36,846 bases of DNA, from contig JAXLYT010000035.1 in assembly GCA_046351295.1 (NCBI GenBank), forward strand, positions 77,452 through 114,297, written 5' to 3'. Below, one piece after another: positions 10,082-29,301 of the stretch. Every line of letters starts with the position of its first letter. Positions within the stretch are counted from its first letter, which is position 1. The DNA is from Byssovorax sp. (GTDB lineage Bacteria > Myxococcota_A > Polyangia > Polyangiales > Polyangiaceae). The translations under genes were made by a program, and so were the position numbers. The notes below the pieces were generated by a model, which saw only the letters and a list, made by a program, of their open reading frames with translations, had not been told where the DNA came from and did not search any database.

Positions 10082-10122
10082 TTGCGCGCGAGCGTACACC
10101 CGAACGGGCGAGGGCGGAGCGC

Positions 10123-11843: not shown

Positions 11844-14800
11844 TTGCGCGCCGGAATCGGCGATGATGCCGGCACAGTCGCCTTGATCCATCGCCCGACA
11901 AGCCGCCCTCCCGCCCGCGCGGACCTTCCCTCGCTTCTCCACCACCCGATCCTCGGCCTCTCGCCGCTCGAGCAGCCCGACGGCCGGCTCGCCGTCGCCC
12001 TCGCGCGGGCCGGCGCGCTGTCGATCCTCGACCTCGGCCGCCGATCCGGGCCTGCCCGCAAGGCGCTGGCGCTCCTCGCGCGCGAGGCCCCGGACGGGTT
12101 CGGCGTGCGCGTGCCGGAGCGATCGGAGTGGGCCCCGGCAGATCTGCCCCCGGAGGTCCAGGTGGTGGTGCTCCAGGCCGGCGCTGCGGTCAGCCGCTTT
12201 TCGCCGCGCCGGGTGCTCGTCCAGATCACCTCGGAAGAAGAGGCGCTGGCGGCGGCCGAGGCGGGCGCCGATGGGCTGATCGTCAAGGGACACGAGGCGG
12301 GCGGGCGCGTCGGATCGGAGACGACGTTCGTGCTGCTCCAGCGCGTGGCCGCTGCCACGAGCCTGCCGCTCTGGGCGCAGGGGGGAATCGGGCTGCACAC
12401 CGCGGCCGCGGCGCTCGCCTGCGGGGCGCGCGGGGTGGTGCTCGACAGCCAGCTCGCGCTGGTGCGGGAGTCGTCGCTCCCGGAGCCGATCAAGGCGGCC
12501 ATCCGGGGCATGGACGGGAGCGAGACGGCGCTCCTCGGCGAGCACCGCGTGTTCACCCGGCCGGACCTGCCGGTGGCCCGGAAGAAGGCCCCCGCGCCGC
12601 AGGATCTCGGCGCCTTCCTCGCGCACCTCGGCGGCCAGGATCTGGAGCGCGATCTGCTGCCCCTCGGGCAGGACGCGGCCTTCGCGCGGCCGCTCGCGGA
12701 GCGCTACCGCACGGCGGGCGGCCTCGTGCACGCGATGCGCGCGGCGATGGACGAGCACCTCGAAGAGGCGCGGACGCTCTCCCCGCTCGGGCCGGGCTCG
12801 CCGCTCGCCCAGGATCACGGCATCCGCTACCCGATCGCGCAGGGGCCGATGACCCGGGTGAGCGATCGCGCGGCCTTCGCCGACGCCGTGTCGAAGGGCG
12901 GCGGGCTGCCCTTCCTGGCGCTCGCGCTCATGCGCGGCGACGAGGTGCGCGCGCTGCTCGTGGAGACGGCGGCGCTGCTCGGGGATCGGGCCTTCGGTGT
13001 GGGCATCCTCGGCTTCGTGCCGGAGGACCTGCGGCAGGAGCAGATCGCCGCGGTGCAGGAGATCCGGCCGAAGGCGGCGATCATCGCCGGAGGCCGGCCC
13101 TCCCAGGCCAGGCCGCTCGACGCGCAGGGGACGATCACCTACCTCCACGTCCCCTCGCCCGGCCTGCTCGATCTCTTCCTCAACGACGGTGCGCGTCGCT
13201 TCGTCTTCGAGGGGCGGGAGTGCGGCGGCCACGTCGGCCCGCGCACGAGCTTCGTGCTGTGGGAATTGCAGATCGAGCGGCTCCTCGCGTTCGCCGACGC
13301 GCGCGGCGCCGAGGGGCTCACCGGGGTGAGCGTGCTCTTCGCGGGCGGCGTCCACGACGCGCGGTCGGCGGCGATGGTCTCGGCCATGGCCGCGCCGCTC
13401 GCGGCCCGCGGCGCGCATATCGGCGTGCTGATGGGCACGGCCTACCTCTTCACGGAGGAGGCGGTGGCCACGGGCGCGATTCTGCCCGCGTTCCAGGAGG
13501 CCGCGCTCGAGTGCGAGCGCACGGTGCTGCTCGAGACGGCACCGGGTCACGCGACGCGCTGCACCGACAACGACTACGCCCACTCTTTCCAGGAAGAGCG
13601 GGCGCGCCTCGAAGCGGAGGGCAAGAGCGCCGAGGAGGTGTGGGCGGCCCTCGAGCAGCTCAACCTCGGGCGCCTGCGCCTCGCCGCCAAGGGGCTCAGA
13701 CGCGAGGGCCCGTCGCTCGTGAAGGTGGATCACCCGACCCAGGCGCGGGAGGGCATGTTCATGATCGGGCAGGTCGCCGCGCTGCGGTCGGCGATCCTCA
13801 CGATCGAGGCGCTGCATGAGGACGTGAGCGCCGGCTCGATCGCCGCGCTCGCCCGCTCCGCGCCGCCGGAAGAGCGCGCCGGAGAGAAGCCCCGCCCGGC
13901 CGACATCGCCATCATCGGCATCGCCTGCATCTTCCCCGACGCGGTCGACCGGCATGCCTACTGGGCGAACATCTGCGCCGGGAAGAGCGCGGTGACCGAG
14001 GTCCCGAAAGAGCGGTGGGACGCGGCGATTTACTACGATCCCGAGGCGCCCGCCGGCGAGAAGTCGGCGTCGCGCTGGGGCGGCTTCCTCCCCACCATCG
14101 CCTTCGATCCGCTGCTCTACGGCATCCCGCCGCGCTCGCTCTCTTCCATCGAGCCGGTGCAGCTCCTCGCGCTCGACGTGGCCCGCCGGGCGCTCGAGGA
14201 CGCGGGCTACGGCGAACGATCGTTCGATCGGGAGCGCACCGCGGTGATCTTCGGGGCCGAGGCGGGCACGGATCTCAGCTCGGCCTACGGCTTCCGCGCG
14301 CTCGTCCCGCAGTACGCGGGGCCGCTCCCGCCGGCCCTCGACGAGCACCTGCCGACGCTGACGGAGGACTCGTTCCCGGGCGTGCTCGCCAATGTCATCG
14401 CCGGGCGCATCGCCAACCGCCTCGATCTCGGCGGGTCGAACTACACGGTGGACGCGGCATGCGCGTCGTCGCTCGCCGCGGTCGATCTGGCCGTGAAAGA
14501 GCTCACGGCCGGCTCGGCCGACCTCGTGCTGTGCGGCGGCGCCGATCTGCACAACAGCATCAACGACTACCTGCTCTTCTCCAGCGTCCACGCGCTCTCG
14601 CCGACCGGCGCATGCCGCACCTTCGACGCCTCGGCCGACGGGATCGTCCTCGGTGAGGGCGTGGCGTGCGTGGTGCTCAAGCGCCTCGCCGACGCCGAGC
14701 GCGACGGCGATCGGATCTACGCGGTGATCAAGGGCATCGCGGGCAGCAGCGACGGGCGGAGCCTGGGCCTCACCGCGCCCCGGAAAGAAGGGCAGATCCG

Positions 14801-17800
14801 CGCGCTCGAGCGGGCCTACCGGGCCTCGGGCGTCTCGCCGGCCGAGGTCGGGCTCGTCGAGGCGCACGGCACCGGCACGGTCGTTGGCGATCGCACCGAG
14901 CTCGGGACGCTGACCGACGTGTACCTCGGCGCGGGCACGGCGCCGGGCGCGGCCGCGCTCGGCTCGGTGAAATCGCAGATCGGCCACACCAAGTGCGCCG
15001 CGGGCCTGGCCGGGATGATCAAGACCGCCCTCGCCCTCCACCACCGCGCGCTGCCGCCCACGTTGCAGATTCGCAAGCCCAACCCGGGCTGGGATCCGGC
15101 GTCGAGCCCCTTCCATTTCAGCGATCACGCTCGCCCCTGGCCCGGCGAAGAGCGCCGGGCCTCGGTGAGCGCCTTCGGCTTCGGCGGGGCGAATTTCCAC
15201 GCGGTGCTGAGCGCCTACGAGGGCGCCGATCCGCCGGCCTCCGGCCTCGAGCGCTGGCCGGTCGAGCTCTTCCTCTTCCGCGCGCCCGATCGCGCCGCGG
15301 CCGCCGCCCGGATCGAGCAGATCGAGCGGCTCCTCACCGACGAGGTGATCGAGGCCGCGCAGCGCGGCGCAGGGCTCTTCACGCTCGCCGATCTCGCCCG
15401 CAGCGTGTCGGAGCGGCGGAGGCGCGCCGACGGCCCGGTGCAAATCGCCGTCCTCGCCGAGAGCCTCGCCGACCTGCGCGACAAGCTGAAGCGCGCCCGC
15501 GCCTTCACCGCCGACGGCCGATCGATCTTCGTGGCCGGCGCGGCGGGCGAGGCTTCGCCGGGCAAGGTGGCCTTCCTCTTCCCGGGGCAAGGGAGCCAGC
15601 GCACCGGCATGCTCGGCGATCTGTTCCTCGCCTTCCCGCCGCTCCAGCGCTTCCTCTCGCTCGGATCGCGCTGGGTCTCGCGGATGTTCCCGCCGATGGC
15701 CCCGACGCCGGAGATCCGCGCGGCGCAGGTGGCGGCCCTCACCGACACCCGCGTCGCGCAGCCCGCCCTCGGCGTCACGTCGCTCGCGCTCGGATCGCTG
15801 CTCCGATCGCTCGGGCTCAAGCCGGACATGGTGGCCGGGCACAGCTACGGCGAGCTCGCCGCGCTCTGCTTCGCGGGGGCGATCGACGAGGCCGATCTGC
15901 TCGCGCTGAGCGAGCAGCGCGCCGCGTGCATCCTCACCTCGACCGGCGACGATCCCGGGACGATGGCCGCCGTCACCGCGCCGCCGAGCGCCGTGGAGCC
16001 GGTGATCGAGGGCATCGAGCAGGTGGTGATCGCCAACCACAACGCGCCCGAGCAGACGGTCATCTCGGGGCCGACCAGCGGCATCGCCGAGGCGATCGCG
16101 GCCCTCGAGGCCGAGGGCCTCTCCGCCCGTTCGATCCCGGTCGCATGCGCCTTCCACAGCCCGCTCGTCGCGCGCGCGCCGGCCCTCTTCGCCGAGCACC
16201 TCGCCCGGATCGACGTGCGATCGCCCCACGTCCCCGTGTACTCCAACGCCACCGCGGCCACCTACCCGGCCGACGCGCGCGCCATCCGCAACATGCTGGC
16301 CGATCACCTCGGCCTCTCGGTGCGCTTCACCGAGGAGATCGAGGCCATGTACGCCGCGGGGGCGCGCACCTTCGTGGAGGTGGGCCCGGGCCGCGTGCTC
16401 TCCGGCCTCGTGGGGAAGATCCTGGCCGGGAAGCCCCACCTCGCGGTGGCATGCGATCAGAGCGGCGAGCCCGGCCTCGCCCGCCTGCTCGCCGCCCTCG
16501 CCGAGCTCGCGGTGGGCGGCGTGGCCGTCGATGCCGCTGCTCTGTTCGCGGGGCGCGCCGCGCGCCTGCTCGATCTCGCGGCCATCTCGACGGCGCCGCG
16601 ATCGAGCTCGCTCTGGCTCGTCAACGGGCACCTGGCGCGCCCCGCGGTCGGCGAGATCCCGAAGGGCGCGCTGCGCCCCGTGGAGGGCCCGCTCGTCAAC
16701 GTCTCCGCCGCGCCGCCCCCGCCGGACGATCGAAAGGACGCGGTGATCGAGTTCCTCCGCGCGAGCCGCGAGATCGTGGAGGCGCAGCGGCAGGTGATGC
16801 TCGGCTTCCTCGGGCAGGCGCCCGAGGTGATCGAGGTCGCCGGCGTCCCGCAGAACGTCCCGGCCCTCGGCACAGGCCCCTCGACCCGCCGGGTCACGCT
16901 CCCGCCCGCGTCCTCGCAGTCCTCCTCGTGGCCGCCGCCGTCGCGCGCGCCCAGGTCCGAGGCCGAGCTGCCGCTCCGCGTGCGCGGACCGGTGCCTTCC
17001 ATCCCCGCGCCGATGCCGAGCCTCACGCCGCCGAGCCTCAAGGACACGCTGCTCGGCATCGTGGGCGAGCGCACCGGTTACCCGGTGGAGATGCTCGATC
17101 TCGATCTCAACCTGGAGGCCGATCTGAGCATCGACTCGATCAAGCGGATCGAGATCCTCGGGACGCTCGGCCAGATGATGGGCTGGGCGCCCGGCTCGGG
17201 CGACGGGCGCGACAAGATGATCGAGAAGCTCGCCACGCAGAAGACGCTGCGGGGCATCCTCACGTGGCTGGAGGCGAACCCCGGTGGAAAGCCCGCGGCC
17301 GAGCCCGCCAAGGCCGATCCGCCGAGGGCCGAGCCGGCCTCGCCCGCGAGGACATCACGCCTCGCGCTCCACCGGTTCCTGCTCTCGGTCGAGGACGCGC
17401 CGGCCCGCCCGGTCGCGGAGATCGGCCGCCGGCGCTGGGCGATCGTGCCCGATCGCGCGGGCGTGGCCGAGGCGCTCGGCGACCTGCTCGCGGCCCGCGG
17501 CGCGACGGCGCGCGTGATCGGGTCCGGCGAGCCGCTCGGAGAGGCCGACGGCCTCGTCGATCTCAGCGCGCTCGCGGCGATCACGACCGAGGAGGTGACG
17601 GCGTCCACGCGCGGCCTGTTCGAGCGGCTCAAGCGCGCCGGAGAGGCCGGGCTCACGGTGGTGATCGCCGCCGTCCCGCTCGGCGCGCCGTTCGGGCCGG
17701 AGGGCGCGCTCCCCCGCGCCGGCGTGGCCGGCCTGATCAAGACGGCCGCGCGCGAGCTGCCCCTGCTCTGCGCGCGCGCCGTGGCGCTCGATCCGGCCGA

Positions 17801-18851
17801 GGGCGCGGCGCAGCAGGCCGAGCACCTGCTCGACGAGCTGCGGATCCGCGACGCGCACCTGGAGGTCGCGCGGGTGGGCGGGGCCCGCAAGGTGCTCATC
17901 CCCATCTCCGCCGATCGGATCCGCAACGGCGCAGACGGCACCGGCATGCTCCTCGGCCCGGAGTCGGTCGTGCTGGTGACCGGTGGAGCACGCGGGATCA
18001 CGGCGTCAACGGCGGTCGCCATCGGCAAACGCTTCGGCTGCCGGCTGGAGCTCGTCGGCCGCACCCCCTTGCCCGACGAGGACGAAGATCCCGATCTCGC
18101 CGCGCTCCGCGATCTCCCGGCGCTCCGCAAGGGCATCCTCGCCAGAGGGCTCGCCACCACGCCCGCCGCGGTGGAGTCCCTCTGCGCGAAGATCACCGCG
18201 GCCCGCGCGCTCCGGAGCACGCTCGCCGAGATCGCGAAGACGGGCGCCACGGCCCGCTACCACGCGGTCGACGTGCGCGATCGGGCCGCCTTCGGCGCGC
18301 TCATCGACGCCATCTACGCCCACCACGGCCGCATCGACGGCGTGATCCACGGCGCCGGGGTGCTCGAAGACCGCCTGATCGCCCAGAAGACGCGCGAGTC
18401 CTTCGATCGCGTCTTCGACACCAAGGTGGAGAGCGCGCTCACCCTGGTCGAGAAGATCCGCCCGGACCTCGGCTTCTTCGTCTTCTTCGGGAGCGTCTCC
18501 GGCGCCTTCGGCAACAAGGGTCAGATCGACTACGCCGCCGCCAACGACACCCTCGACAAGCTCGCCTACTGGCTCAAGGAGCGCGTCAAGGGGCGGGTCG
18601 TCTCGCTCGACTGGGGCCCGTGGGCCGGCGCGGGGATGGTCTCGCCCGAGCTCGCCCGCGAGTACGAGCGGCGCGGCGTGGGCCTCATCGATCCCCAGCA
18701 AGGGGTCGACGCCTTCCTCGACGAGCTGCTCCACGGCGGCGCCGCCTCGCAGGTCATCCTCATGAGCGGCAGCCCCGAGGTGATGATCTGGCAACCCGCG
18801 GCCGAGGCCCCGCCGGTGACCGCGCCCTCCCCTATCGTCATCGATGCATGA
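11844..18851 (+). CDS. type I PKS / PUFA-synthase-like multidomain enzyme: NMO-like domain, PfaD-like FMN enoyl reductase, KS, AT, ACP and KR
   Basis: Continuous 2,335-aa ORF. Motifs: GIRYPIAQGPMTRVSD...FEGRECGGHVG (PfaD/trans-ER type ER); DAACASS (KS Cys codon 14460-14462), EAHGTGT, IGHTK; FLFPGQGSQ and GHSYGE (AT Ser 15843-15845); LEADLSIDSIKRIEILG (ACP Ser 17136-17138); VLVTGGARGITAS (KR Rossmann). The start is uncertain: the track uses TTG at 11844, alternative TTG at 11883. Confidence 0.9.
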   Translation: MRAGIGDDAGTVALIHRPTSRPPARADLPSLLHHPILGLSPLEQPDGRLAVALARAGALSILDLGRRSGPARKALALLAREAPDGFGVRVPERSEWAPADLPPEVQVVVLQAGAAVSRFSPRRVLVQITSEEEALAAAEAGADGLIVKGHEAGGRVGSETTFVLLQRVAAATSLPLWAQGGIGLHTAAAALACGARGVVLDSQLALVRESSLPEPIKAAIRGMDGSETALLGEHRVFTRPDLPVARKKAPAPQDLGAFLAHLGGQDLERDLLPLGQDAAFARPLAERYRTAGGLVHAMRAAMDEHLEEARTLSPLGPGSPLAQDHGIRYPIAQGPMTRVSDRAAFADAVSKGGGLPFLALALMRGDEVRALLVETAALLGDRAFGVGILGFVPEDLRQEQIAAVQEIRPKAAIIAGGRPSQARPLDAQGTITYLHVPSPGLLDLFLNDGARRFVFEGRECGGHVGPRTSFVLWELQIERLLAFADARGAEGLTGVSVLFAGGVHDARSAAMVSAMAAPLAARGAHIGVLMGTAYLFTEEAVATGAILPAFQEAALECERTVLLETAPGHATRCTDNDYAHSFQEERARLEAEGKSAEEVWAALEQLNLGRLRLAAKGLRREGPSLVKVDHPTQAREGMFMIGQVAALRSAILTIEALHEDVSAGSIAALARSAPPEERAGEKPRPADIAIIGIACIFPDAVDRHAYWANICAGKSAVTEVPKERWDAAIYYDPEAPAGEKSASRWGGFLPTIAFDPLLYGIPPRSLSSIEPVQLLALDVARRALEDAGYGERSFDRERTAVIFGAEAGTDLSSAYGFRALVPQYAGPLPPALDEHLPTLTEDSFPGVLANVIAGRIANRLDLGGSNYTVDAACASSLAAVDLAVKELTAGSADLVLCGGADLHNSINDYLLFSSVHALSPTGACRTFDASADGIVLGEGVACVVLKRLADAERDGDRIYAVIKGIAGSSDGRSLGLTAPRKEGQIRALERAYRASGVSPAEVGLVEAHGTGTVVGDRTELGTLTDVYLGAGTAPGAAALGSVKSQIGHTKCAAGLAGMIKTALALHHRALPPTLQIRKPNPGWDPASSPFHFSDHARPWPGEERRASVSAFGFGGANFHAVLSAYEGADPPASGLERWPVELFLFRAPDRAAAAARIEQIERLLTDEVIEAAQRGAGLFTLADLARSVSERRRRADGPVQIAVLAESLADLRDKLKRARAFTADGRSIFVAGAAGEASPGKVAFLFPGQGSQRTGMLGDLFLAFPPLQRFLSLGSRWVSRMFPPMAPTPEIRAAQVAALTDTRVAQPALGVTSLALGSLLRSLGLKPDMVAGHSYGELAALCFAGAIDEADLLALSEQRAACILTSTGDDPGTMAAVTAPPSAVEPVIEGIEQVVIANHNAPEQTVISGPTSGIAEAIAALEAEGLSARSIPVACAFHSPLVARAPALFAEHLARIDVRSPHVPVYSNATAATYPADARAIRNMLADHLGLSVRFTEEIEAMYAAGARTFVEVGPGRVLSGLVGKILAGKPHLAVACDQSGEPGLARLLAALAELAVGGVAVDAAALFAGRAARLLDLAAISTAPRSSSLWLVNGHLARPAVGEIPKGALRPVEGPLVNVSAAPPPPDDRKDAVIEFLRASREIVEAQRQVMLGFLGQAPEVIEVAGVPQNVPALGTGPSTRRVTLPPASSQSSSWPPPSRAPRSEAELPLRVRGPVPSIPAPMPSLTPPSLKDTLLGIVGERTGYPVEMLDLDLNLEADLSIDSIKRIEILGTLGQMMGWAPGSGDGRDKMIEKLATQKTLRGILTWLEANPGGKPAAEPAKADPPRAEPASPARTSRLALHRFLLSVEDAPARPVAEIGRRRWAIVPDRAGVAEALGDLLAARGATARVIGSGEPLGEADGLVDLSALAAITTEEVTASTRGLFERLKRAGEAGLTVVIAAVPLGAPFGPEGALPRAGVAGLIKTAARELPLLCARAVALDPAEGAAQQAEHLLDELRIRDAHLEVARVGGARKVLIPISADRIRNGADGTGMLLGPESVVLVTGGARGITASTAVAIGKRFGCRLELVGRTPLPDEDEDPDLAALRDLPALRKGILARGLATTPAAVESLCAKITAARALRSTLAEIAKTGATARYHAVDVRDRAAFGALIDAIYAHHGRIDGVIHGAGVLEDRLIAQKTRESFDRVFDTKVESALTLVEKIRPDLGFFVFFGSVSGAFGNKGQIDYAAANDTLDKLAYWLKERVKGRVVSLDWGPWAGAGMVSPELAREYERRGVGLIDPQQGVDAFLDELLHGGAASQVILMSGSPEVMIWQPAAEAPPVTAPSPIVIDA
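11935..12570 (+). other. N-terminal nitronate-monooxygenase-like (FMN TIM-barrel) domain of PKS gene 1
   Basis: HHPILGLSP...LARAGALSILDLG; GADGLIVKGHEAGGRVG; LWAQGGIG. These are NMO/IMPDH-like FMN-barrel signatures lying upstream of the canonical PfaD-like ER. Confidence 0.55.
12819..13830 (+). other. PfaD-like enoyl reductase domain
   Basis: GIRYPIAQGPMTRVSDRAAFADAVSKGGGLPFLAL ... RRFVFEGRECGGHVGPRTSFVLWE. Confidence 0.8.
13898..15222 (+). other. ketosynthase domain (KS1)
   Basis: IAIIGIACIFPDA...TVDAACASSLAAVDLA...EAHGTGTVVGD...GHTKCAAG...GFGGANFHAVL; a full Cys-His-His catalytic set is present. Confidence 0.9.
15560..16450 (+). other. acyltransferase domain (AT1, canonical)
   Basis: AFLFPGQGSQRTGM...GHSYGELAAL...AFHSPLV. 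Confidence 0.85.
17040..17290 (+). other. acyl carrier protein domain (single ACP)
   Basis: LGIVGERTGYPVEMLDLDLNLEADLSIDSIKRIEILGTL; only one ACP copy is present, whereas PfaA-type proteins carry tandem ACPs. Confidence 0.8.
17380..18720 (+). other. ketoreductase domain (KR)
   Basis: VLVTGGARGITASTAVAIGKRFG...IHGAGVLEDRL...YAAANDTLDKLA (Tyr/Asn catalytic region). Confidence 0.8.
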
Positions 18852-21800
18852 CGCGGCCGGGGGAGATACCCTCGGCCGCCATGGACATCGACCTCGACCT
18901 CCTCGAAGCCCTGGCGCTCTCCGACGATCGCGCGCCCGCCCTCGAAGCGCTGCTCCCGGGCACCGCGGTCCACGACTATCGCCGCGGGATCGAGCTCCAG
19001 CACCAGGGGAAGCTCGACGAGGTCGACGCGCTGATCGAGGGGTGGAAGGCGCGCTATCCGAACGAGGACGAGGCCTTCGCGCGCCTCAGGCGCCGGCAGC
19101 TCCTCCTCCGGGCGGGCGCCGATCTCGCGACGCATGCGGAGGCGATCCGCTTCGAGGCGGGCCTCCGCTTCGATGATCAGGCCGAGGCCGAGGCGGCGGC
19201 GCAGCGGTACCCGAGCCGCCTCGATCCGGCGGTGATCTCGCCGGACGCGCTCCGGCGCGACGCGCTGAGCCGCGCCTCGGATCTCTCCTGCTTCACCGCG
19301 TGGTCGCTCGACACGCTGGTGTCGAAGGGCGGCGCGCTCGGGATGAGCCGGATCCGCGAGCTGCTCGGCCGGCTCCCGCGGGCGAACGTGAAGGGGCTCG
19401 TCGAGCTCATCGCCCGGGAGCTCGCGGACAGCGCGTCGGGGGGCTTCCGCGCCCTCGCCCTCGCGCCGCAGCTCACCCTGGAGCAGCTCCAGGCGCTCGT
19501 GAAGCAGCGGCCGCAGCTCCGCCAGGACGGCGCGTGGGTCGAGGCGGTGATGGCCCGGCTCTGCCCGCCTGCGCATGTCGACATCACGATCGATCGCGAG
19601 GCGCGCGGGGCGTACCTCGACGCGCTCGCGGCCTTCGTCGATCCGCTCCCGGCCGGCTTCGCCACGCTCAAGGCCCAGGTGCTCTACCACCGGCTCGATC
19701 TCGATCGCGCGCTCGGCGTCTACGATCGCGACCGCTTCCTCCGCTACCTCGGGATGCCTCGCGCGCAGCCCTACGTCGACGGCGACTGGATCCGCCGCTT
19801 GCCCTCCGATCAGGTGGCCCGGCCCGGCTGGGGCGGACCGTCGGCGCCGCTGCTCGAGTCGTTCGGGAACGACGAGGAGCTGGTGCGCGACTACCTGCAC
19901 CACTTCCTCGTCACGGAGGAGATGGACGCCTTCGCCGAGCGCATCCGCCGCGACTGGCTCACCGCGGAGCTCGCCACCGCGCGCCTGCTCGCGGGCGACC
20001 CCGACACCCGGCGCTGGACGGCGCTGCTCTCCGAGGGCGCGCTCGCGAGCCTCCGCGAGCGCGTGGACATCGAGCTCTCGTGCCGGAACCCGCCCTGCTT
20101 CGCAGCGGACGAGGCCGTGCGCCTGGAGGTGCTCTGCAAGAACGTTCCCGAGCTGACGGTCAAGGTCTTCCGGATCAACGCCCTCGCGTACTTCCTCGGC
20201 AAAGGTGGCGAGATCGACACGGACATCGATCTCGACGGGATGATCGCGGGCGACGAGCGCACCGTGACGATCGATGCGCCCTCGATCCGGCGCACCGCGC
20301 AGAGCGTCGATCTGCCCGGCTGCGCGCGGCCGGGCACGTACGTGGTCGAGCTGATCGGCAACGGCCGGGCGAGCCGCGCGCTGATCCGCAAAGGATCGCT
20401 CCGCGCCGTCTCGCGCGTCGGCGCGGCCGGGGTCACGGTGACCGTGCTCGACGAGCAGGGGCGGCCGCTCCCCGACGCGCGCCTGTGGATGGGCGGGCAG
20501 GAGCTGTCCCCGCGCGAGGACGGCGCGATCACCATCCCCTTCTCCACGCAGCCGGGCGAGCGGCCCGTGCTCCTCGTCCACGGCGATCTCGCCCAGCGCG
20601 AGACCCTCTATGTGCCGGCGGAGCGCTACGCGCTCGACGCTCGCTTCGAGCTCGATCGGCAGGCCCTCGTGGCGGGCAAGAACGCTCGGATCCTCCTTCG
20701 CCCGAGGCTCTCGATCGCCCCCTCGTCGCCCGTGCCGATCGCCCTGCTCGAGGAGCCCGCGCTCGAGATCTCCGTGGTCGATCTCAAGGGCGTCCCCGTC
20801 CAGAAGACCCTGCCCCTCACGCTCCGCGAGGACGCCGAGGCCGTCGCGGAGATCTGGGTGCCCGAGGACACGGTGAAGATCGGCCTCCGCCTGCGGGGTC
20901 GGGTGCGCGTCGTCTCGACCCAGCAGACCGTGGACCTCGAGGACACGATGGACACCGGCGTCAACGAGGTGCACCAGTCGTCGCAGACCGAGGCCATGCA
21001 CCTCGGCCGCACCGCGGACGGCCATGTCCTCTACCTGCTCGGCAAGTCGGGGGAGCCCCGCGCGGGCCGCGCGGTGCCGATCACGCTCACGCATGCCGCC
21101 GTGACCTTCGGCGTGGCCGTGACCCTGGCCACCGACGAGCGCGGCCGGATCGAGCTCGGCCCGCTGCCCGGGGTGAGGACGATCTCCGCGGGCGGATCGA
21201 GCTGGTCCATCTGGCCCGAGGTGAGCGCGCCGGATCTGCTCGGCGCGGCGAGCGGCGCGACGATCACGCTGCCGGCGCCGCCGTTCCTCGATCCCGAGGA
21301 GCTCCCGCGTGCCGTCTCCCTGGTCGAGTTGCGCAAGGACGCGGCGCTCCGCGAGCTCGGCGATCGGGTGACGCTCGACGGACGTCTGCTTCGGGTCGCC
21401 GGGCTCGATCCCGGCCGGTATCGCCTGAGCGTCCGGGGCTTCGACTCGCCGATCACCATCGAGATCGGGCCAGGCGCGGTCGATCCCGCGACCGGCTGGT
21501 CGACGCGCGGATCGAGGATGGTCGAGATCACCCCGCCCCTCGCGCTCGTGCAGGCCTTCGCCGTCGAGGGCGACGACATCGTGGTGCGCCTCGACGGCGC
21601 CGGCCCCGAGACCCGCGTCCACCTGATCGCGAGCTACTTCCAGCCTTCCCCGCTGCCCTTCGACCGCTTCGCCGAGACTCCGTCGACGACGCGCCCGGTG
21701 CAGGTGCCCCCGCGCCGATCCCGCTACGTCTCGGGGCGCGACATCGGCGACGAGTACCGCTACGTGCTCGCCCGGCGGACGGCGACGCGCCGGCCGGGGA

Positions 21801-24800
21801 TGCTGCTCGACAAGCCGAGCCTCCTGCTCAACCCGTGGGCGCTCCGCACCACGTCGAACCAGGTGCAGGTCGCCGCGTCGGGCAGCGCGTTCGGACCGGC
21901 CGGCGCGCCTCCCGGCATGGCCATGCCCAAGCCCCAGGGGCCGCGGGGAGGCAGCGCCGATCCCTCGCAGGGCGGGATCACCCCGTCGTACGATTTCCTC
22001 GCGGCGCCCGCCGTCGTGATCGACAACCTCCGCCCCGACGGCGGCGGCGTGGTTCGTGTACCGCGGACACGACTGGGCGACGCCCAGACCGTCCGGGCGA
22101 TCGTCGTCGATCGCAGGCAAGCGTCGAGCGCCGACCTGCCCTCCCCGAGACCGCGCCGGCCCACCGCGATCGCCGCCTCCGCCTCGCCCTCGATCCCGAC
22201 GGCCATTTCGCCGAGATCCGCTGCGTCGAGGCTGCCCCGAGCGGCACCGTGCTGGTCGTCGACGATCTGCGCACCGGCAAGGTCGAGCTCGTCGACACCG
22301 TGGCGCGGGCCCACCAGGTGCTGCTCACCCTGGGCGACGACGCGACCCTCCGCGAGCTCTCCTCGCTCGTGCGCTGGCCTTCGCTGCCGGCGGCAGAGCA
22401 GCAGCGCCTCTACGGCAAGTACGCATGCCACGAGCTCCACCTCTTCCTCGCCCGGAAGGACCCGGCCTTCTTCGCGCGCGCCGTCGCGCCCTACCTCGCC
22501 CACAAGCTGCACAAGACCTTCGTCGACCGCTACCTGCTCGGCGAAGATCTCTCCGCCTTCACCGAGCGCTGGGCCATGGGCCGCCTCAACGCGCTGGAGA
22601 AGGTCCTGCTCGCGCGCAGGCACCCCGAGCTCCGGCCGTCGATCGCGCGCCTCCTCGGCGAGGCCGTCGAGCGGATCCCGCCCGACCCCGAGCGCGACGC
22701 GCGTCTCTGCGACACCCTGCTCGGATCCACGGGGCTCGAGGGCGGTGGCATCGGCGGCGCGGCCAAGATGGACATGATGCTCGAGATGGGAGAGCCCGAA
22801 GAGGAGAGGGCAACACGGGAGCTCGATTTCGGACGTCGTGCCAAGCGCAAGGCGCGTCCGGCCGAGTCCGAGTCCGAGGCGGACGGCGACTTCAGCGACG
22901 ACATGCCCGCGCCCGCGCCCGCCGCGGCGCCGCCACCGGCGATGCGATCCATGACCATGGTGGGCTACGGCGGCGGCGGCATGGCGCGCGCGATGGCCGA
23001 TCTGCGGGAGCGAGAGCGCGGCGCCGCGCTCTACCGGAGCGCCGACAAGACGCAGGAGTGGGCCGAGTCCGGCTACTTCCGGACGCCCGTCGAGCTGCTC
23101 TCCCCCGATCTGGTCATACCGAGCCGCTTCCTCCTCGATCTCGCCAGGCACGAGGAAGGCCCCTTCCTCTCGCCGCACCTCGGCGACTGCGCCGACAGCT
23201 TCACCACGGCCATGGCCGCCCTGGCCTTCCTCGATCTGCCGTTCACGGCCGCCGAGCACGAGGTGCTGATCGACGACACGAAGCTCACCCTCACCGTCAA
23301 GAGCCACGCCCTCGCCGCCCGGACGCGGATCGCCTCCGTCTCCGCGCCCGAGGCGCGCGGGCCGATCCTGGTCGGGCAGAGCTACGTGCGCGCCGACGAT
23401 CCCGTCGTCTGGGAGGGCGCCGAGCAGCACGAGAAATACGTCACCGGCGAGATGCTCACGGGCGTGGTCTACGAAGCGCGGATCTCGGTGACCAACCCGA
23501 CGAGCAGCGCGCAGCGGCTCGCGGTCCTGCTCCAGATCCCGCGGGGCGCCGTCCCGGTTCAGAGCGGCTTCCTCACCCACACGAACCACGTCCACCTCGG
23601 CCCGTACGCGACCGCGGCGATCAGCTACGCCTTCTATTTCCCGGCGGAGGGCGCGTGGGGCCACTTCCCCGCCCATGTCCTTCGCGGTGAGGACCTCGCA
23701 GCGTTCGCGGAGCCGCGCAGGCTCACCGTGGTCCGCGAGCCCACGACCACCGACACGACCTCGTGGGCCCATGTCTCGCAGCTCGGGACGCTCGATGAGG
23801 TGCTGGGCTTCCTCGACCGCGAGAACCTCGGCCGGATCGATCTCGACAAGATCGCCTTCCGGATGCGCGATCGCGCGTCGTTCGAGCGCGTCATCGATCT
23901 GCTCGATCGCCGCCAGGTCTACGAGGACAAGCTCTGGTCCTACGCGCTCTTCCACGCCGATCGCCGCCGGGCCGCCGAGTGGCTCCGCCACCAGGGCGGC
24001 TTCCTCGCGCCCGCCGCGCCGGTGCTCGACGGCGCGCTCGTGACCGTGAGCCCCGTCGAGCGCGGGCTCTACCAGCACCTCGAGTACGCGCCCCTCGTCA
24101 ACGCCCGCGCCCACCAGCTCGGCAAGAAGCGGCGGATCCTCAACGACGCGCTCGCCGCGCAGTACCGCGCCTTCCTGGAGACCGTCGCGCACCGCGCTCG
24201 GCCGTCCGACGCCGATCTGCTCGTCGCCGCGCACTACGCCTTCTGCCTCGATCGCGTCGATTTCGCCCTCTCGTTGCTCGATCGGGTGCGCGCGGACGCC
24301 GTGGAGAGCCGCCTCCAGCTCGACTACCTCGCGGCCTACGCGGCCTGCTGCCGGGGCGATCTCGCCGAGGCCCGCAGGCGGATCGCGCCGTGGATCGACA
24401 GCCCCGTCGATCGCGTCCGCTTCCGGGCCGCGGCGCTCGCGGCCATGCTCGACGAGGCCGAGGGCAAGGGCGGCGGAGAGCGCCCCGCGGGCAGCGTCGA
24501 TCCCGACAGCCGCGATCGCGCCATGGCCGATCTCGCGAGCCGCCAGCCGACGCTCGATCTCGCGAGCGACAAGGGCGAGATCGTCCTCCGGCACAAGAAC
24601 CTCACCTCGGCCCGCGTGCGCTTCTACCGGATGGACATCGAGCTCTTGTTCTCGCGGCAGCCCTTCGTGCAGGGCGACGTCGAGCGCTTCTCGTTCATCG
24701 ATCCCGGGGGCGAGCTCACCATCCCGCTCGGCCCCTCCGGCCGCGCGGTGGTGCCCGTCCCGGACGCGCTGCGCGGTCAAAACCTGATCGTCATGGCCGA

Positions 24801-25116
24801 CGGCGCGGGCGTGCGGCGATCGATCGCCCACTACGCCCACGATCTCGCGATCGAGCTCGCGCATCAGGCCGGGCAGCTCCGGGTGCTCCGCGCCTCGACG
24901 CAGGCGGCGCTCCCGGCTGCCTACGTCAAGGTCTACGCCCGGCAGACCGGCGGCGCCGTGAGCTTCTACAAGGATGGCTACACCGACCTCCGGGGCCGCT
25001 TCGACTACGCCACCCTCTCGACCGACGACCTCGATCGCACCGAGCGATTCTCCCTGCTCGTCGTCTCGCCCGAGGCCGGCGCGACGGTGATGGAGGCGCC
25101 TCCGCCGGCCCGGTGA
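18848..25116 (+). CDS. very large (~2,090 aa) multidomain protein of unknown function embedded in the PKS operon; apparent 1-nt frameshift at about 22143-22147
   Basis: ATG at 18848 overlaps the TGA of gene 1 (ATGA); alternative ATG at 18881 (MDIDLDL) has GGGGGAGA upstream. Protein-like translation runs in frame 2 from 18848 to about 22145 (TPR-like helical N-terminus, then beta-rich repeats TVKVFRINALAYF, GTYVVELIG, VTVTVLDEQGRPLPDARLWMGGQE). It then continues in frame 1 from about 22150 to 25116 (helical region, then C-terminal beta domain YVKVYARQTGGAVSFYKDGYTDLRGRFDYATLSTDD). Restoring one C in the CCCC run at 22143-22146 joins ...ADLPSP to ETAPAHRDRRLRLALDPDG. No signal peptide, no nucleotide-binding or PKS motif was recognised. 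Confidence 0.7.
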
Positions 25117-25200
25117 GATCTCGCCTTGCGCCAGCGGCGGAGCCGTCGCAAAAGCCCTGCGCGATGAGCTTCGTGGCCGATCGTTCCGAGGAGTCCGCGC

Positions 25201-28200
25201 ATGGCTGAGCGGGACAAGCGCGGCGTCGCGATCGTCGGCATGGCAGCGCTCTTCCCGGGCGCGCGCGATCTCGCGGCCTTCGAGCAGAACCTCGCGGCCG
25301 GCGCAGACGCCTTCCGCGACGCGCCGCCCGACCGGATCGATCCGGCCTTCTACGATCCCGCATCCACTGCGCCCGATCGGCTCTACTGCCGCCGCGGCGG
25401 CTTCCTCCCCGAGCCGGTGCGCTTCGACGCGGCCTCGTTCGGGATCATGCCGATCGCCGCGCAGGGCGCCGAGCCCGATCAGCTCCTCGCCCTCGATCTC
25501 GCGGCCCGCGCGCTCGCCGACGCCGGCTACGCCGATCGCCCCTTCGCGCGCGACAAAGCCTCGGTGATCCTCGGTCGCGGCGGCTACCTCACGCCCGGCG
25601 TGGCCCGCCTCGATCAGCGCGTCCGCGCCGCCGAGCAGCTCGTCCAGAGCCTCCGCGCGCTCTTGCCCGATCTGCCCGATGACAAGCTCGCCGCCGTCCG
25701 GGCCGAGGTGCAAGCCGGGCTCGGACCCTTCGGCCCCGACACCGCCATCGGCCTCGTGCCGAACCTCGCGGCCTCGCGCATCGCCAACCGCCTCGATCTC
25801 GGCGGCAGCGCCTACACGATCGACGCCGCATGCGCGAGCTCGCTCGTCGCGGTCGATCACGCATGCCGCGATCTCCACGCCCACCGGGCCGACCTCGTGC
25901 TCGCGGGCGGCGTCCATCTCTGCCACGATCCGGGCTTCTGGAGCGTCTTCTGCCAGCTCGGCGCGCTCAGCCGATCCGGGCAGATCCGCCCCTTCGATCG
26001 GCGCGCCGACGGCCTGCTCATCGGCGAGGGCGTGGGCGTCCTCGCGCTCAAGCGCCTCGCCGACGCCGAGCGCGACGGCGACCGCATCTACGCCGTGATC
26101 CGCGGCACGGGGACGGCGAGCGACGGCCGCGGCGCGAGCCTGATGAGCCCGGACATGAACGGGCAGATCGCCGCGCTCCGGCGGGCGTGGGACGACGCGG
26201 GGCTCGATCCTTCCCTCGTCGGTATGATCGAGGCCCATGGCACCGGCACGGCGGCGGGCGACGGGGCCGAGCTCGGCACGCTCGCGCGCGTCTTCGGCCC
26301 GGCGAGGGCAGACGAGGCGCGCGCCGCGCTCGGCTCCGTCAAGTCGATGATCGGCCACACCATGCCGGCCGCGGGCGCCGCCGGCTTGATCAAGGCCGCC
26401 CTCGCCCTCCACCACGCGCGGCTCTACCCCTCGCTCCACTGCGAGGAGCCCCGCGCCGAGGTCGAGGCCACGCGCTTCCGCATCCTCTCGCGCGCCGAGC
26501 CCTGGGAGAGCCCGGGCCGCCCGCGCGTCGCCGGCGTCAACGCCTTCGGCTTCGGCGGCATCAACGCGCATGTGGTGCTCGAGGAGCACCCGGCGAGCCG
26601 CCCGTCCACTTCGCCGCGCGCTTCGTCCCCATCGTCCACGTCGTCCACATCGTCGCCCACCGTGGTCGAGCCGGTCCTCTTCCTCGCCGCGGAGAGCCCC
26701 GCCGCGCTGTGCGAGGCCCTCGACGCGCATGACGCGCACAACGCGCATGACGAGCGCGCGGCGAGCGGACCTGCGCGCCTCGCGCTCTTCAACCCCACCC
26801 CGGAGCGGCGCGCGCGGGCCCGGGCCATCGTCGCGCGTGGCGAGCCCTGGCGCGGCCGCGACGATCTCTGGTTCTCCGCCGAGGGCCTGCTCGCGCGCGG
26901 CGGCCGGGTGGCCTTCCTCTTCCCGGGCGTCGATTCGAGCTTCGATCCGCGCGTCGACGACGTGGCCTCCCGCTTCGGGCTCCCGCTCAGCATGCCCGAG
27001 GGTAAGCGCTCGCTGAAGGATCTCGGGATGGGGATCATCGCGGTCGGCCGGCTGCTCGACGCCGCGCTCCGGCGGATCGGCGTCTACCCGGCGATGATCG
27101 CCGGCCACAGCATCGGCGAGTGGAGCGGGATGATCGCCTCGGAGATGATCCCCCGGGACGAGATCGACGGCATCATCGCGCGCCTCGCGCCCGAGAGCGT
27201 GTCCGTGCCCGGGGTCACCTTCATCGCGGCCGGCTGCGGCCTCGACAAGGCCATCGCCGCGATGGAGGGCCTGCCGGAGATCGCCGTCTCCCACGACAAC
27301 TGCCCGCACCAGCTCATCCTCTGCGGCATCGAGGCGAGCGCCGACATCGCCCTCGATCGACTGAAGAAGATGGGCGTGCTCAGCCAGAAGCTCCCCTTCC
27401 AGTCCGGCTACCACTCGCGCCTCTTCCACGCGTACACGGGCCCGCACCGGCGCATCCTCGCGGGCCTCCCGCTGACCACCCCGGCCGTGCCCCTCTGGTC
27501 GGCCACCACCTGCGCGCCCTACCCGGCCGATCCCGAGGCGATCCGCCGCCTCGCCGTGCAACACATCCTCGAGCCCGTCCGCTTCCGCGAGCTCACCCTC
27601 GCGCTCCACGAGGCCGGCGCGCGCGCGTTCATCCAGGTCGGCACCGGCAGCTTGATCGGCTTCGTCGGCGACACGCTGCGCGGCCTCCCGCACCTCGCCG
27701 TCAGCGCCAACATGCCGGCGCGCTCCGGCCTCGCCCAGCTCCGCCGCGTGGCTGCGGCGCTCTGGACCGAGGGCGCTTCACCCGACCTCGGCAGGCTCGA
27801 CATGGCGCCGCCCGCGCGCCGTGAAAAGGTACGCGCGGCCCCGCCCATCGAGATCTCGCTCGGCGCGCCCCTCGTCACCGCCCGCGGTCCGCTCGATCGC
27901 CCGGCGCCTCCCGCGCCGGCCGGTGATCTCGACGGCATAGCCGATCTCGCCTACCTCGATCTCGATCCCACCGATCCGCTCGCCGTCGAGCTCGGCCTGG
28001 GCCTCGCGTCGATCCGTGCCGCCCAGCGCGACGTCGTGGCGGCGTTCCTCCGCGCGCCGATCGCCCCACCCGCGGCAGGCCCGCACGAGATCACGCTCCA
28101 GCGCAGCATCTCGGTGGACGACTACCCCGAGCTGCACGATCACGCCTTCTACCGCCAGCCGGAGGGCTGGCCTGCGCTCGTCGATCGCTACCCCGTGGTG

Positions 28201-29301
28201 CCGATGACGATGATCCTCGAGCTCATGCGCGAGATCGCCGAGGAGCTCGTGCCGGGCAAGATCGCCGTCGGTCTCTCGGGCGTGCGCGCGTACCGCTGGA
28301 TGGCCGTCGCGCCCCCGGTCGATCTCACCATCACCGCTCGCCACGACGGCGCCTGCCGCGTCGAGCTGAGCATCGAGGGCTTCGCGGCCGGCGCGGTCGA
28401 GCTCGCCGACGCCTACCCCGCTCCGCCGCCGCGCGATCTCTCCCCGCTCACCGGCGAGGCCGCGCCCGCCATCGACGCCCCCACGCTCTACGCCGATCGC
28501 TGGATGTTCCACGGCCCCGCGTACCAGGGTGTGCTCTCCCTGGACACGATGGCCAACGATGGGATCCGCGGTCGCCTCGCGTCCCTCCGGGCGAAGGGCG
28601 GCCTGCTCGACAACGCGGGCCAGCTCCTCGGCTACTGGGTGATGGAGCATGCCGAGAACGACCGCCTCGCGATGCCGGTCATGCTCGAGCGCGTGCGCTT
28701 CTTCTCCCCCGCCCCGCCCGTCGGTGAGGACCTCGACTGCACCGTGTGGATCCGCCGCCTGAGCGACACCGACGTCCGGGCCGACGTGGAGCTGTGCGAA
28801 GGCGATCGGGTCTTTTGCCGGATCGACGGCTGGGAAGATCGCCGCTTCGACTCCGATGCCCGGGTGTGGGCCGTGCTCCGCTACCCCGAGCAGAACCTCC
28901 TCGCCGTGGTCGACGAGCAGGGCCGAGGCCTCGTCAAGCAGCCCTGGAAAACGGCCGCGTCACGCGATCTCCTCGCACGCCGCTACCTGAGCGAGCGAGA
29001 GCGCGAGGCACACGCCAAGATCGATCTCCGCCGGCAAGGCGAGTGGCTGCTCGGCCGGATGGCCCTCAAGGACTGCGCGCGGCGCCTGCTCTGGGAGCGC
29101 GGTCACGGGCCGATCTTCCCCATCGAGATCGAGGTCGAGACCGATCCGGCCGGCCTGCCGAGGCTCCGCGGTCCGCTCGCGGATCGGCTCGTCGCGCGCC
29201 TGGCCGTGAGGCCGGGGTACGCCGCGGCCTGGGTGGGCGATGCCGATCGAGAGGTCGATCTCGCGGCGCTCCTCGACCAGGCCGAGCCCCGCGGCGAATG
29301 A
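25201..29301 (+). CDS. type I PKS: KS, atypical AT, DH and a C-terminal AcpS-like PPTase-like domain
   Basis: 1,366-aa ORF with GAGGAG SD 7 nt upstream. KS: DAACASS (Cys codon 25831-25833), EAHGTGTAAGD, IGHTMPAAG. AT-like: AFLFPGVDSSF plus GHSIGEWSGM (Ser 27109-27111). DH: LHDHAFYRQPEGWP ... LYADRWMFHGPAYQGV. Tail: YLSEREREAHAKIDLRRQGEWLLGRMALKDCARRLL and IEIEVETDPAGLPRLRG, resembling the AcpS motifs (RFAAKEAxxKA; FEVFNDELGKPRLRLWG). Confidence 0.9.
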   Translation: MAERDKRGVAIVGMAALFPGARDLAAFEQNLAAGADAFRDAPPDRIDPAFYDPASTAPDRLYCRRGGFLPEPVRFDAASFGIMPIAAQGAEPDQLLALDLAARALADAGYADRPFARDKASVILGRGGYLTPGVARLDQRVRAAEQLVQSLRALLPDLPDDKLAAVRAEVQAGLGPFGPDTAIGLVPNLAASRIANRLDLGGSAYTIDAACASSLVAVDHACRDLHAHRADLVLAGGVHLCHDPGFWSVFCQLGALSRSGQIRPFDRRADGLLIGEGVGVLALKRLADAERDGDRIYAVIRGTGTASDGRGASLMSPDMNGQIAALRRAWDDAGLDPSLVGMIEAHGTGTAAGDGAELGTLARVFGPARADEARAALGSVKSMIGHTMPAAGAAGLIKAALALHHARLYPSLHCEEPRAEVEATRFRILSRAEPWESPGRPRVAGVNAFGFGGINAHVVLEEHPASRPSTSPRASSPSSTSSTSSPTVVEPVLFLAAESPAALCEALDAHDAHNAHDERAASGPARLALFNPTPERRARARAIVARGEPWRGRDDLWFSAEGLLARGGRVAFLFPGVDSSFDPRVDDVASRFGLPLSMPEGKRSLKDLGMGIIAVGRLLDAALRRIGVYPAMIAGHSIGEWSGMIASEMIPRDEIDGIIARLAPESVSVPGVTFIAAGCGLDKAIAAMEGLPEIAVSHDNCPHQLILCGIEASADIALDRLKKMGVLSQKLPFQSGYHSRLFHAYTGPHRRILAGLPLTTPAVPLWSATTCAPYPADPEAIRRLAVQHILEPVRFRELTLALHEAGARAFIQVGTGSLIGFVGDTLRGLPHLAVSANMPARSGLAQLRRVAAALWTEGASPDLGRLDMAPPARREKVRAAPPIEISLGAPLVTARGPLDRPAPPAPAGDLDGIADLAYLDLDPTDPLAVELGLGLASIRAAQRDVVAAFLRAPIAPPAAGPHEITLQRSISVDDYPELHDHAFYRQPEGWPALVDRYPVVPMTMILELMREIAEELVPGKIAVGLSGVRAYRWMAVAPPVDLTITARHDGACRVELSIEGFAAGAVELADAYPAPPPRDLSPLTGEAAPAIDAPTLYADRWMFHGPAYQGVLSLDTMANDGIRGRLASLRAKGGLLDNAGQLLGYWVMEHAENDRLAMPVMLERVRFFSPAPPVGEDLDCTVWIRRLSDTDVRADVELCEGDRVFCRIDGWEDRRFDSDARVWAVLRYPEQNLLAVVDEQGRGLVKQPWKTAASRDLLARRYLSEREREAHAKIDLRRQGEWLLGRMALKDCARRLLWERGHGPIFPIEIEVETDPAGLPRLRGPLADRLVARLAVRPGYAAAWVGDADREVDLAALLDQAEPRGE
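25219..26590 (+). other. ketosynthase domain (KS2) with intact C-H-H triad, so not a CLF
   Basis: VAIVGMAALFPGA...IDAACASSLVAVDHA...HGTGTAAGD...GHTMPAAG...GFGGINAHVVL. Confidence 0.85.
26900..27790 (+). other. acyltransferase-like domain with non-canonical GVDSS motif
   Basis: VAFLFPGVDSSFDP replaces the usual GQGSQ; GHSIGEWSGM nucleophile elbow retained; a downstream HAYTGPHRR-like His region is present. Confidence 0.6.
28070..28850 (+). other. PKS-type dehydratase (double hot-dog) domain
   Basis: LHDHAFYRQPEGWPALVDRYPVVP (HxxxGxxxxP-like) and LYADRWMFHGPAYQGV (GPxFQG motif). Confidence 0.7.
28870..29298 (+). other. AcpS-type phosphopantetheinyl-transferase-like C-terminal domain
   Basis: About 145-aa tail after DH: LSEREREAHAK...RMALKDCARRLL (a match to the W/F-x-x-K-E-A-x-x-K motif with E replaced by D) and IEVETDPAGLPRLRG ... 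AAAWVGDADREV, resembling AcpS C-terminal motifs. The N-terminal Mg-binding motif looks degenerate (VVDEQG). Confidence 0.45.

Follow-up and report, generated by a model that had tools for sequence, protein, structure and literature searches.

Alpha-2-macroglobulins (A2Ms) of bacteria are described as periplasmic proteins (PMC5764988), and the same source distinguishes a type I, which carries a thioester, from a thioester-less type II, which still traps protease. Type I is represented by E. coli YfhM/ECAM, Salmonella A2M and the PDB entries 4u48, 4zjh and 4zjg; type II is represented by P. aeruginosa MagD/YfaS. Here we describe a giant gene located between two polyketide synthase (PKS) genes in a 36,846-nt stretch of Byssovorax sp. 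DNA (assembly GCA_046351295.1, contig JAXLYT010000035.1, positions 77,452 to 114,297 of the forward strand), hereafter the window. The giant gene is real and is one gene of about 2,078 amino acids (aa), interrupted by a single-base deletion. By sequence comparison its product falls in a very large, unnamed family without a curated model, and by structure prediction the A2M/complement fold appears to be the best description of that family. The original prediction for this DNA had seen a faint A2M likeness in the protein and had proposed a scaffold or chaperone dedicated to lipid synthases; the first idea gained from the analysis, and the second was confined to a small clade.

The G+C content of the window is 72%, as a result of which long open reading frames (ORFs) occur in many frames. 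In a plot of the G+C content at third codon positions (GC3), the + strand was coding in the frame of the ATG codons at 18848 and 18881 from about 18.8 to 22.1 kb (GC3 of 0.90–0.99). Near position 22100 the signal switched abruptly into the −1 frame, in which it remained until the stop codon at 25114–25116 (GC3 of 0.84–0.97). The first frame continues past the break to 22777 as Arg/Pro/Ser-rich nonsense, and the second frame is nonsense 5' of about 22140. An intact ORF from 18848 to 25116 does not exist, given the GC3 switch and a length (6,269 nt) that is not divisible by three; the original prediction had itself spoken of a 'frameshift-corrected protein'. Its claim that the 18.85–25.12 kb between the two synthase genes are taken up by one very large coding region on the + strand was confirmed by the ORF list, GC3 and Pfam. 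When joined at 22141, the two frames encode 2,089 aa counted from ATG 18848, or 2,078 aa if the count begins at ATG 18881. The product is smaller than the upstream synthase (2,335 aa), contrary to the claim that it exceeds both synthases in size.

The position of the break follows from a DNA comparison with an intact ortholog in a related assembly (locus L090), according to which one base has been lost from a Pro codon: the window reads GAC CTG CC- CTC CCC GAG where L090 reads GAT CTC CCG CTC CCC GAG (DLPLPE). The repaired window protein (...VDRRQASSADLPLPE...) aligns without gaps to the family consensus ...VDPxxTxxxxLALPE... and is also in register with LALPE. Over its full length it can be aligned with hundreds of homologs of ~2,030–2,170 aa that are each encoded by a single ORF, and its C part (22141–25116) aligns end to end with the C-halves of homologs at 34–69% identity. 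The three peptides quoted previously (TVKVFRINALAYF, GTYVVELIG and VTVTVLDEQGRPLP) were all found in the repaired protein. In the annotation of the source metagenome-assembled genome (MAG), the corresponding entry (P0025, protein MFO0759250.1, 'Byssovorax sp. U0359_22350') starts at 18881 and runs on out of frame to a length of 1,298 aa. The source MAG thus fragments one gene and wrongly extends the first fragment out of frame, which is a lesson for annotation.

The deletion is most likely an indel error of the assembly. Three further frameshifts are present in the window, two in the second alpha/beta-hydrolase gene (hydrolase B, at ~30682 and ~31131) and one in the glycosyltransferase gene (~31555–31594, + strand). 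The orthologs of these genes in the three relatives with the same PKS context (loci L088, L089 and L090) are intact and 80–86% identical to the broken genes of the window, which suggests that the window contig is indel-prone. Crude NG86 dN/dS values between the window and L090 were 0.43 for the giant gene as a whole, 0.48 for its N part and 0.37 for its C part, compared to 0.33 for the adjacent PKS gene; these values indicate continued purifying selection on the giant gene. Moreover, the window copy keeps all 31 and 37 invariant columns of the two 93-sequence family alignments. The additional frameshifts, the dN/dS of the N and C parts and the retained invariant columns favour an indel-prone assembly over an old pseudogene.

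Alternatively, the giant gene could be a decaying passenger that reached the operon through a rearrangement, plays no part in it and is disappearing; the frameshift of the window would then be a real inactivating mutation. Frameshifts do affect three of the four PKS-linked copies, at differing sites, while in the window and in L088 the large PKS genes are intact. The window break lies at aa 1087–1088 (counted from ATG 18881) and that of L088 at ~aa 1341–1385, and in L089 (1775–8031 of a JGI metagenome contig) the frame changes four times within aa 725–1042 (the latter two numbered from ATG 18848). We regard such a decaying passenger as unlikely, because dN/dS is below 0.5 on either side of the break, GC3 stays at 0.84–0.99, and the L090 copy is intact at 2,088 aa. 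The other frameshifts of the window and the truncated call of the L089 upstream synthase (only 1,152 aa) point to indel-prone assemblies, although for L089 either a poor assembly or genuine decay of the locus would fit. The offset of −1 between the two frames, and the full-length product that they encode jointly, could also reflect a programmed −1 ribosomal frameshift. This mechanism is exceedingly improbable and was rejected: the site (GAC CTG CCC TCC CCG) holds no X XXY YYZ slippery heptamer, the intact ortholog of L090 is in frame at exactly this place, the homologs listed are mostly single full-length ORFs, and the other broken copies break elsewhere.

Among the 141 matches listed in the homolog search, most had 99% coverage, 33–64% identity and single ORFs of ~2,000–2,250 aa; the mean column identity of the two alignments (A1 and A2, 93 sequences) was 42%. 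Members were found in at least 522 species genomes, from Myxococcota, Planctomycetota, Verrucomicrobiota/Kiritimatiellia, Victivallales, Ozemobacteraceae and some Desulfobacterota. At 50% identity the family comprises 3,123 clusters at E ≤ 1e-3 and 1,137 at E ≤ 1e-30, most of them with lengths of 2,050–2,150 aa. A scan of metagenomes with a single N-half query found nothing, and a profile scan of metagenomes yielded distant relatives only (≤49% identity). The window protein carries the motifs of the family: the MDLxxLEALAL start, GTYVVE[LF]IGNG, RDIGDEYRY, ACHEL, FYKDGYTD and the tail EAxPPxR. Of all motifs of the family, FYKDGYTDLRGRFDY is conserved best; it lies in the C-terminal pair of beta-sandwiches, as does the conserved tail. 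The single uninterrupted ORF that typifies the family is broken in the window copy by the one-base deletion, probably an artefact. The extreme C-terminus (25078–25113) is conserved across phyla as ...GATV.EA.PP.R followed by the stop codon, with E985, P988 and P989 nearly invariant, and this conserved end hints at a possible recognition tail.

Neither half of the window protein, nor any of the diverse members examined, matched Pfam (above thresholds), NCBIfam or PADLOC; the sole Pfam signal was a weak, sub-threshold CarboxypepD_reg in a few members. When all PDB sequences were searched with the family profile, the only hit was a chance MarR match (E = 0.13). These results bear out the claim of a real gene whose product lies outside every curated family (Pfam, NCBIfam, PADLOC, PDB sequences). 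The stated lack of a P-loop, a CxEQ motif, a signal peptide and any PKS or Rossmann match in Pfam was confirmed as well. Profile searches, proposed at the time as a check, gave no confident known enzymatic family. PKS or fatty acid synthase (FAS) catalytic or carrier domains were not detected in the giant protein with Pfam and NCBIfam. Annotation has overlooked this family entirely, although it occurs in at least 522 species genomes, forms over 3,000 clusters (50% identity) and keeps a length of ~2,080 residues across several phyla; one such 'hypothetical protein' is Nannocystis exedens SAMN02745121_04789.

The structures of the N-half and the C-half were predicted separately with AlphaFold2 from 37-sequence alignments. 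Both models were confident. The N-half model had a mean predicted local distance difference test score (pLDDT) of 85.5 and a predicted template-modelling score (pTM) of 0.78; the values for the C-half were 78.0 and 0.63. The predicted domains are listed in Table 1. The TPR-like helical N-terminus of the original prediction was recovered in the model, at about 393 aa and not ~600 aa. In addition to the domains in the table, a beta-sandwich straddles the two halves, beginning at aa 1045 of the N-half and ending with aa 23–51 of the C-half.

In structure searches with both AlphaFold2 halves, the top matches were bacterial A2Ms and complement C3/C4/C5, so that the likeness to A2M and its MG domains, previously called faint, became the leading structural match of either half. 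With Foldseek, the alignment of the C-half to the C3b alpha' chain spanned ~800 columns, with E = 1.7e-6, a probability of 0.99–1.0 and a TM-score of ~0.1; the low TM-score indicates that the domains of the C-half share the order of C3b but differ in orientation. In the models, MG beta-sandwiches form an array in an A2M-like order. The A2M/complement fold is therefore the best structural description to be had for the family, the C-half being predicted to keep the same rough domain order. A2Ms also possess a protease-accessible bait region, the cleavage of which sets off trapping; with regard to this hallmark, the giant protein has its two disordered inserts (aa 970–1031 and C-half aa 197–279). 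Members of the A2M Pfam set (MG2, A2M, A2M_BRD, TED, bMG) gave no match at E ≤ 10 for the window protein and 23 diverse members. The thioester motif C.EQ was absent from the window protein and from all 120 homologs; the conserved Cys of the family sits in ACHEL.

The conserved N-terminus is acidic (MDIDLDLLEALALSDDR) and has no hydrophobic h-region. The maximal hydropathy over 19 residues is 1.63, at an internal position, and a strongly hydrophobic stretch is not present. Judged from N-terminal composition and hydropathy, the protein has no recognisable export signal or lipobox, and it is probably cytoplasmic. At the level of the fold, the uncharacterised family would be a cytoplasmic, TPR-headed and thioester-less form of macroglobulin. 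Analogy with this fold, and with MagD, which also lacks a thioester, would make the giant protein a large cytoplasmic scaffold that binds or cages non-covalently, and not a pathway enzyme.

The conservation pattern of the C-half also allows an enzymatic reading, in which the small helical domain would harbour the active site (of a hydrolase or metal-dependent enzyme, for example), with the MG and TPR domains as substrate-binding accessories. Within 75 residues of sequence, six residues of this domain (W79, H97, E98, D107, D129 and E153 in C-half numbering) are invariant in 93/93 sequences, C96 is conserved in 89/93, and K122 and N150 are each conserved in at least 90/93. Several additional His, Glu and Arg residues that hardly vary are found in the helical-repeat domain further downstream, and both length and sequence of the family are very strongly conserved across phyla. 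Searches with hidden Markov models (HMMs) and the profile search of PDB sequences matched no enzyme family, and the best structural neighbours are the non-enzymatic A2M and complement proteins; we therefore consider an enzyme family improbable. An HExxH metalloprotease was rejected as a candidate, since the second His (H100) is conserved in only 57/93 sequences.

Most homologs start with MD(L/I)(D/E)...LEALAL (MDxDLDLLEALAL), which corresponds to Met12 of the ORF from 18848, that is, to ATG 18881, the start also annotated in the source MAG. The original prediction had placed the start at ATG 18848 and had taken its overlap with the TGA stop of the upstream synthase (18849–18851) as a sign of coupling. 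This ATG is not conserved. In L088, L089 and L090 the upstream synthase ends with TAG or TAA and an ATG is missing at the overlap position, so the ATGA overlap is a coincidence of the window sequence. What is conserved, in all four PKS-linked loci, is a 29-nt spacer between the synthase stop and the start of the giant gene. The spacer is occupied by a GC-rich hairpin of up to ~11 bp, the stem of which extends from 2 nt past the synthase stop to 2 nt before the ATG; its 5' arm carries a Shine-Dalgarno-like GGGGGAG (18859–18865). The minimum free energy (MFE) of the window hairpin was −24.9 kcal/mol (z = −4.6), and those of the three syntenic relatives ranged from −18.7 to −27.7 kcal/mol (z = −3.5 to −6.5). 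In the consensus fold of the four sequences, three pairs showed compensatory double changes. The core motif of the hairpin was confined to this junction when the window and 171 family loci were searched, and a dispersed repeat was rejected on this ground. In a search of 18700–25300, Rfam matched no family, at the hairpin or elsewhere.

A scan for consensus sites revealed no promoter-like or terminator-like site at either junction of the giant gene, which ends 84 nt before the ATG of the KS-AT-DH gene. Together with the 29-nt spacer, this makes co-transcription with the upstream PKS gene almost certain, in agreement with the original prediction, and the giant gene would thus be transcribed together with the upstream synthase. 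The conserved hairpin would bury the Shine-Dalgarno-like run and gate translation of the giant gene. With its stem only 2 nt beyond the synthase stop, the hairpin would be opened by ribosomes that terminate at this stop, resulting in termination-dependent translational coupling. This route of coupling would differ from the ATGA overlap proposed before.

Table 1. Position of the giant gene, its predicted domains and the adjoining synthase genes in the window.
Feature	Position	Strand	Description	Basis
Upstream synthase	11844–18851	+	NMO-type ER, KS, AT, ACP, KR; 2,335 aa	ORF list, Pfam
Spacer hairpin	18853–18879	+	GC-rich, in 29-nt spacer	MFE, covariation, conservation
Giant gene, part 1	18881–22141	+	residues 1–1087, conserved start MDIDLDLLEALAL	GC3 0.90–0.99, homolog N-termini
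TPR-like N-terminal domain	18881–20059	+	all-helical, aa 1–393	AlphaFold2 model
Beta-sandwich array	20066–21745	+	about six MG-like domains, aa 396–955	AlphaFold2 model
Disordered insert 1	21788–21973	+	low-complexity, Gly/Pro/Ala-rich, aa 970–1031	pLDDT < 50, columns poorly conserved
Frameshift site	22139–22141	+	Pro codon short of one base	DNA comparison with L090, consensus register, GC3 switch
Giant gene, part 2	22141–25116	+	−1 frame, residues 1088–2078 and stop codon	GC3 0.84–0.97
Small helical domain	22300–22722	+	invariant polar set, C-half aa 54–194	AlphaFold2 and column counts
Disordered insert 2	22729–22977	+	acidic and Ala/Pro-rich, C-half aa 197–279	pLDDT 28–37
Beta-sandwich region	23260–23730	+	C-half aa 374–530	AlphaFold2 secondary structure
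Helical-repeat domain	23764–24459	+	C-half aa 542–773	AlphaFold2 secondary structure
C-terminal beta-sandwich pair	24550–25098	+	tandem, C-half aa 804–986	AlphaFold2 model
Downstream synthase	25201–29301	+	KS, KAsynt_C_assoc, AT-like, PS-DH	Pfam; identical to P0121

The genomic setting of the family was assessed at 173 loci, at four of which (the window, L088, L089 and L090) the giant gene is embedded in a PKS operon. The other 169 loci comprised nine homolog neighbourhoods, including those of the closest stand-alone relatives (60–64% identity), 80 genome loci and 80 metagenome loci; a PKS gene flanked the giant gene at none of these. The sole KS match among them was KS-sized (~440 aa) and on the opposite strand (L069). 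The question raised with the original prediction, whether orthologs always sit between ER-KS and KS-DH genes, was thereby answered in the negative. As nearly all members are stand-alone genes, the function of the family is independent of PKS, and a scaffold or chaperone dedicated to lipid synthases is not supported for the family at large: for most members the finding is the one named beforehand as speaking against it. A conserved neighbour family was not found across 66 full-length loci, and therefore neither pbpC nor a mag-type partner accompanies the giant gene. At 5 of 72 loci with downstream sequence (L011 and L014–L017, one Kofleriaceae/Haliangiales clade) a Ser/Thr kinase gene lies directly downstream on the same strand, at a distance of 28–139 nt.

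The closest homologs of the downstream synthase (76–77% identity) are located in L088, L089 and L090; GCA_964269635.1 is among the complete assemblies with a PKS-linked copy. These three loci share the order ER-KS-AT-ACP-KR gene, giant gene, ABC transporter, KS-AT-DH gene, ACP, two hydrolases, glycosyltransferase and methyltransferase. The ABC transporter (ABC_membrane plus ABC_tran, ~621–625 aa) occupies 8131–10008 in both L088 and L089 and 8149–10014 in L090. A remnant of it was sought in the 84-nt spacer of the window (25117–25200) and was not found, and the window contains no ABC homolog anywhere. The interval between the giant gene and the transporter in L090 (7783–8070) holds an imperfect 42-nt tandem repeat (6.8 copies, 67% matches) that has no equivalent in the window. 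In a neighbour-joining (NJ) tree, the copies of the window, L088 and L090, that is, three of the four PKS-linked copies, formed one clade inside the Polyangiaceae group. Given this clade and the gene order shared by L088, L089 and L090, the embedding goes back to one event, specific to this lineage, and has persisted since.

Because four assemblies conserve the arrangement, the protein may have been recruited in this lineage as a dedicated partner, namely a scaffold, chaperone or cage produced alongside both synthases and required for assembly or for handling of the product. The retention of PKS gene, 29-nt spacer and giant gene with a conserved hairpin, the single clade of the copies placed in the tree, a constraint on these copies similar to that on the PKS, and the nature of TPR and MG domains as protein-binding modules would all fit such a partner. 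The absence of PKS from 169/169 other loci, the nearest relatives included, tells against it, as do the three frameshifted copies and the order in the relatives, where the giant gene is followed by the ABC transporter and not by the second synthase. Every family-invariant residue is kept in the window copy, which therefore shows no sign of a new function. Taken together, a dedicated partner is unlikely, and the scaffold proposal would in any case apply only to the small clade of four assemblies.

Overall, we prefer the explanation in which one broken gene represents a PKS-independent family with an A2M fold, captured by a single Polyangiaceae operon resembling those for polyunsaturated fatty acid (PUFA) synthases, translationally coupled there and encoding a non-enzymatic scaffold; we assign this explanation as a whole a probability of about 0.6. 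Several observations weigh against it. The tests for A2M at the HMM level were negative, both with Pfam and with hhalign, in which the family profile reached a probability of 0.2% against E. coli YfhM (a single-sequence template of low sensitivity). The cytoplasmic location is deduced solely from the lack of a recognisable signal. The invariant H, E, D, D, E set of the small helical domain could be a catalytic or metal site, at odds with a non-enzymatic protein. Real decay could underlie the frameshifts in three of the four PKS-linked copies, each of which is broken at different positions. Finally, the covariation of the hairpin comes from only four related sequences, and the coupling is putative.

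If the fold assignment is true, the macroglobulin architecture would extend to a new cellular compartment and probably to a new role. The closest structural relatives are exported, protease-trapping immune proteins, and the giant family has neither an export signal nor a thioester. The four PKS-embedded copies and the hairpin that sequesters the Shine-Dalgarno-like run offer a lead to function, as they provide a defined operon, a defined upstream partner and a candidate coupling element. A still more specific scenario, in which the family is the first cytoplasmic branch of the A2M/complement fold, a thioester-less cage of TPR and MG domains that was recruited in the Polyangiaceae lineage as the coupled holder of a PUFA-like megasynthase or of a lipid before its export, is speculative and in our view a long shot.

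Around the operon, the start of the upstream synthase (TTG 11844) is uncertain. Just 5' of this gene lies a small ORF (11070–11780, + strand) with a weak match to VDE-lipocalin, and close by is a divergent ORF resembling leucine carboxyl methyltransferases (10123–10968, − strand). The flanks of the window (7355–10099 and 34281–36580, both − strand) encode a 914-aa Dictyostelium CTDC repeat protein, a lamin-tail-domain protein and a CotH kinase-like protein; these flanking genes have no detectable similarity to the flanks of stand-alone family members.

The genes flanking the giant gene have the same domain sets as PUFA-synthase (Pfa)-like clusters (NMO-type ER, KS, AT, ACP and KR in one; KS, AT-like and DH in the other) and, as in those clusters, genes for an ACP, hydrolase, glycosyltransferase and methyltransferase follow the synthases. 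Unlike the Pfa components, the giant protein has no PKS/FAS domain, and its family is found overwhelmingly outside Pfa-like clusters. The literature on a component of this kind was covered by one survey of such clusters (PMC3098273), in the main text of which the term 'hypothetical protein' gave no match. Compared to the eukaryotic thioester-containing proteins (complement C3/C4/C5, A2M, CD109 and insect TEP1), the global superposition was poor (TM-score ~0.1), and the giant protein lacks their CGEQ motif, their secretion signal and sequence similarity to them; equivalents of the TED and CUB domains were not identified. The bacterial A2Ms differ from the giant protein in being periplasmic (according to PMC5764988), whereas the latter has no signal peptide or lipobox, and the giant protein is ~400–500 aa longer, with an extra TPR-like head of 393 aa and two long disordered inserts. 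E. coli yfhM adjoins pbpC and type II belongs to the mag/yfaSTAPQ operon, in contrast to the giant family, which has no conserved partner in the 66 full-length loci. What the bacterial A2Ms and the giant protein have in common are long arrays of MG-type beta-sandwiches, helical modules and a very large size, and the absence of a thioester is shared with the type II protein MagD.

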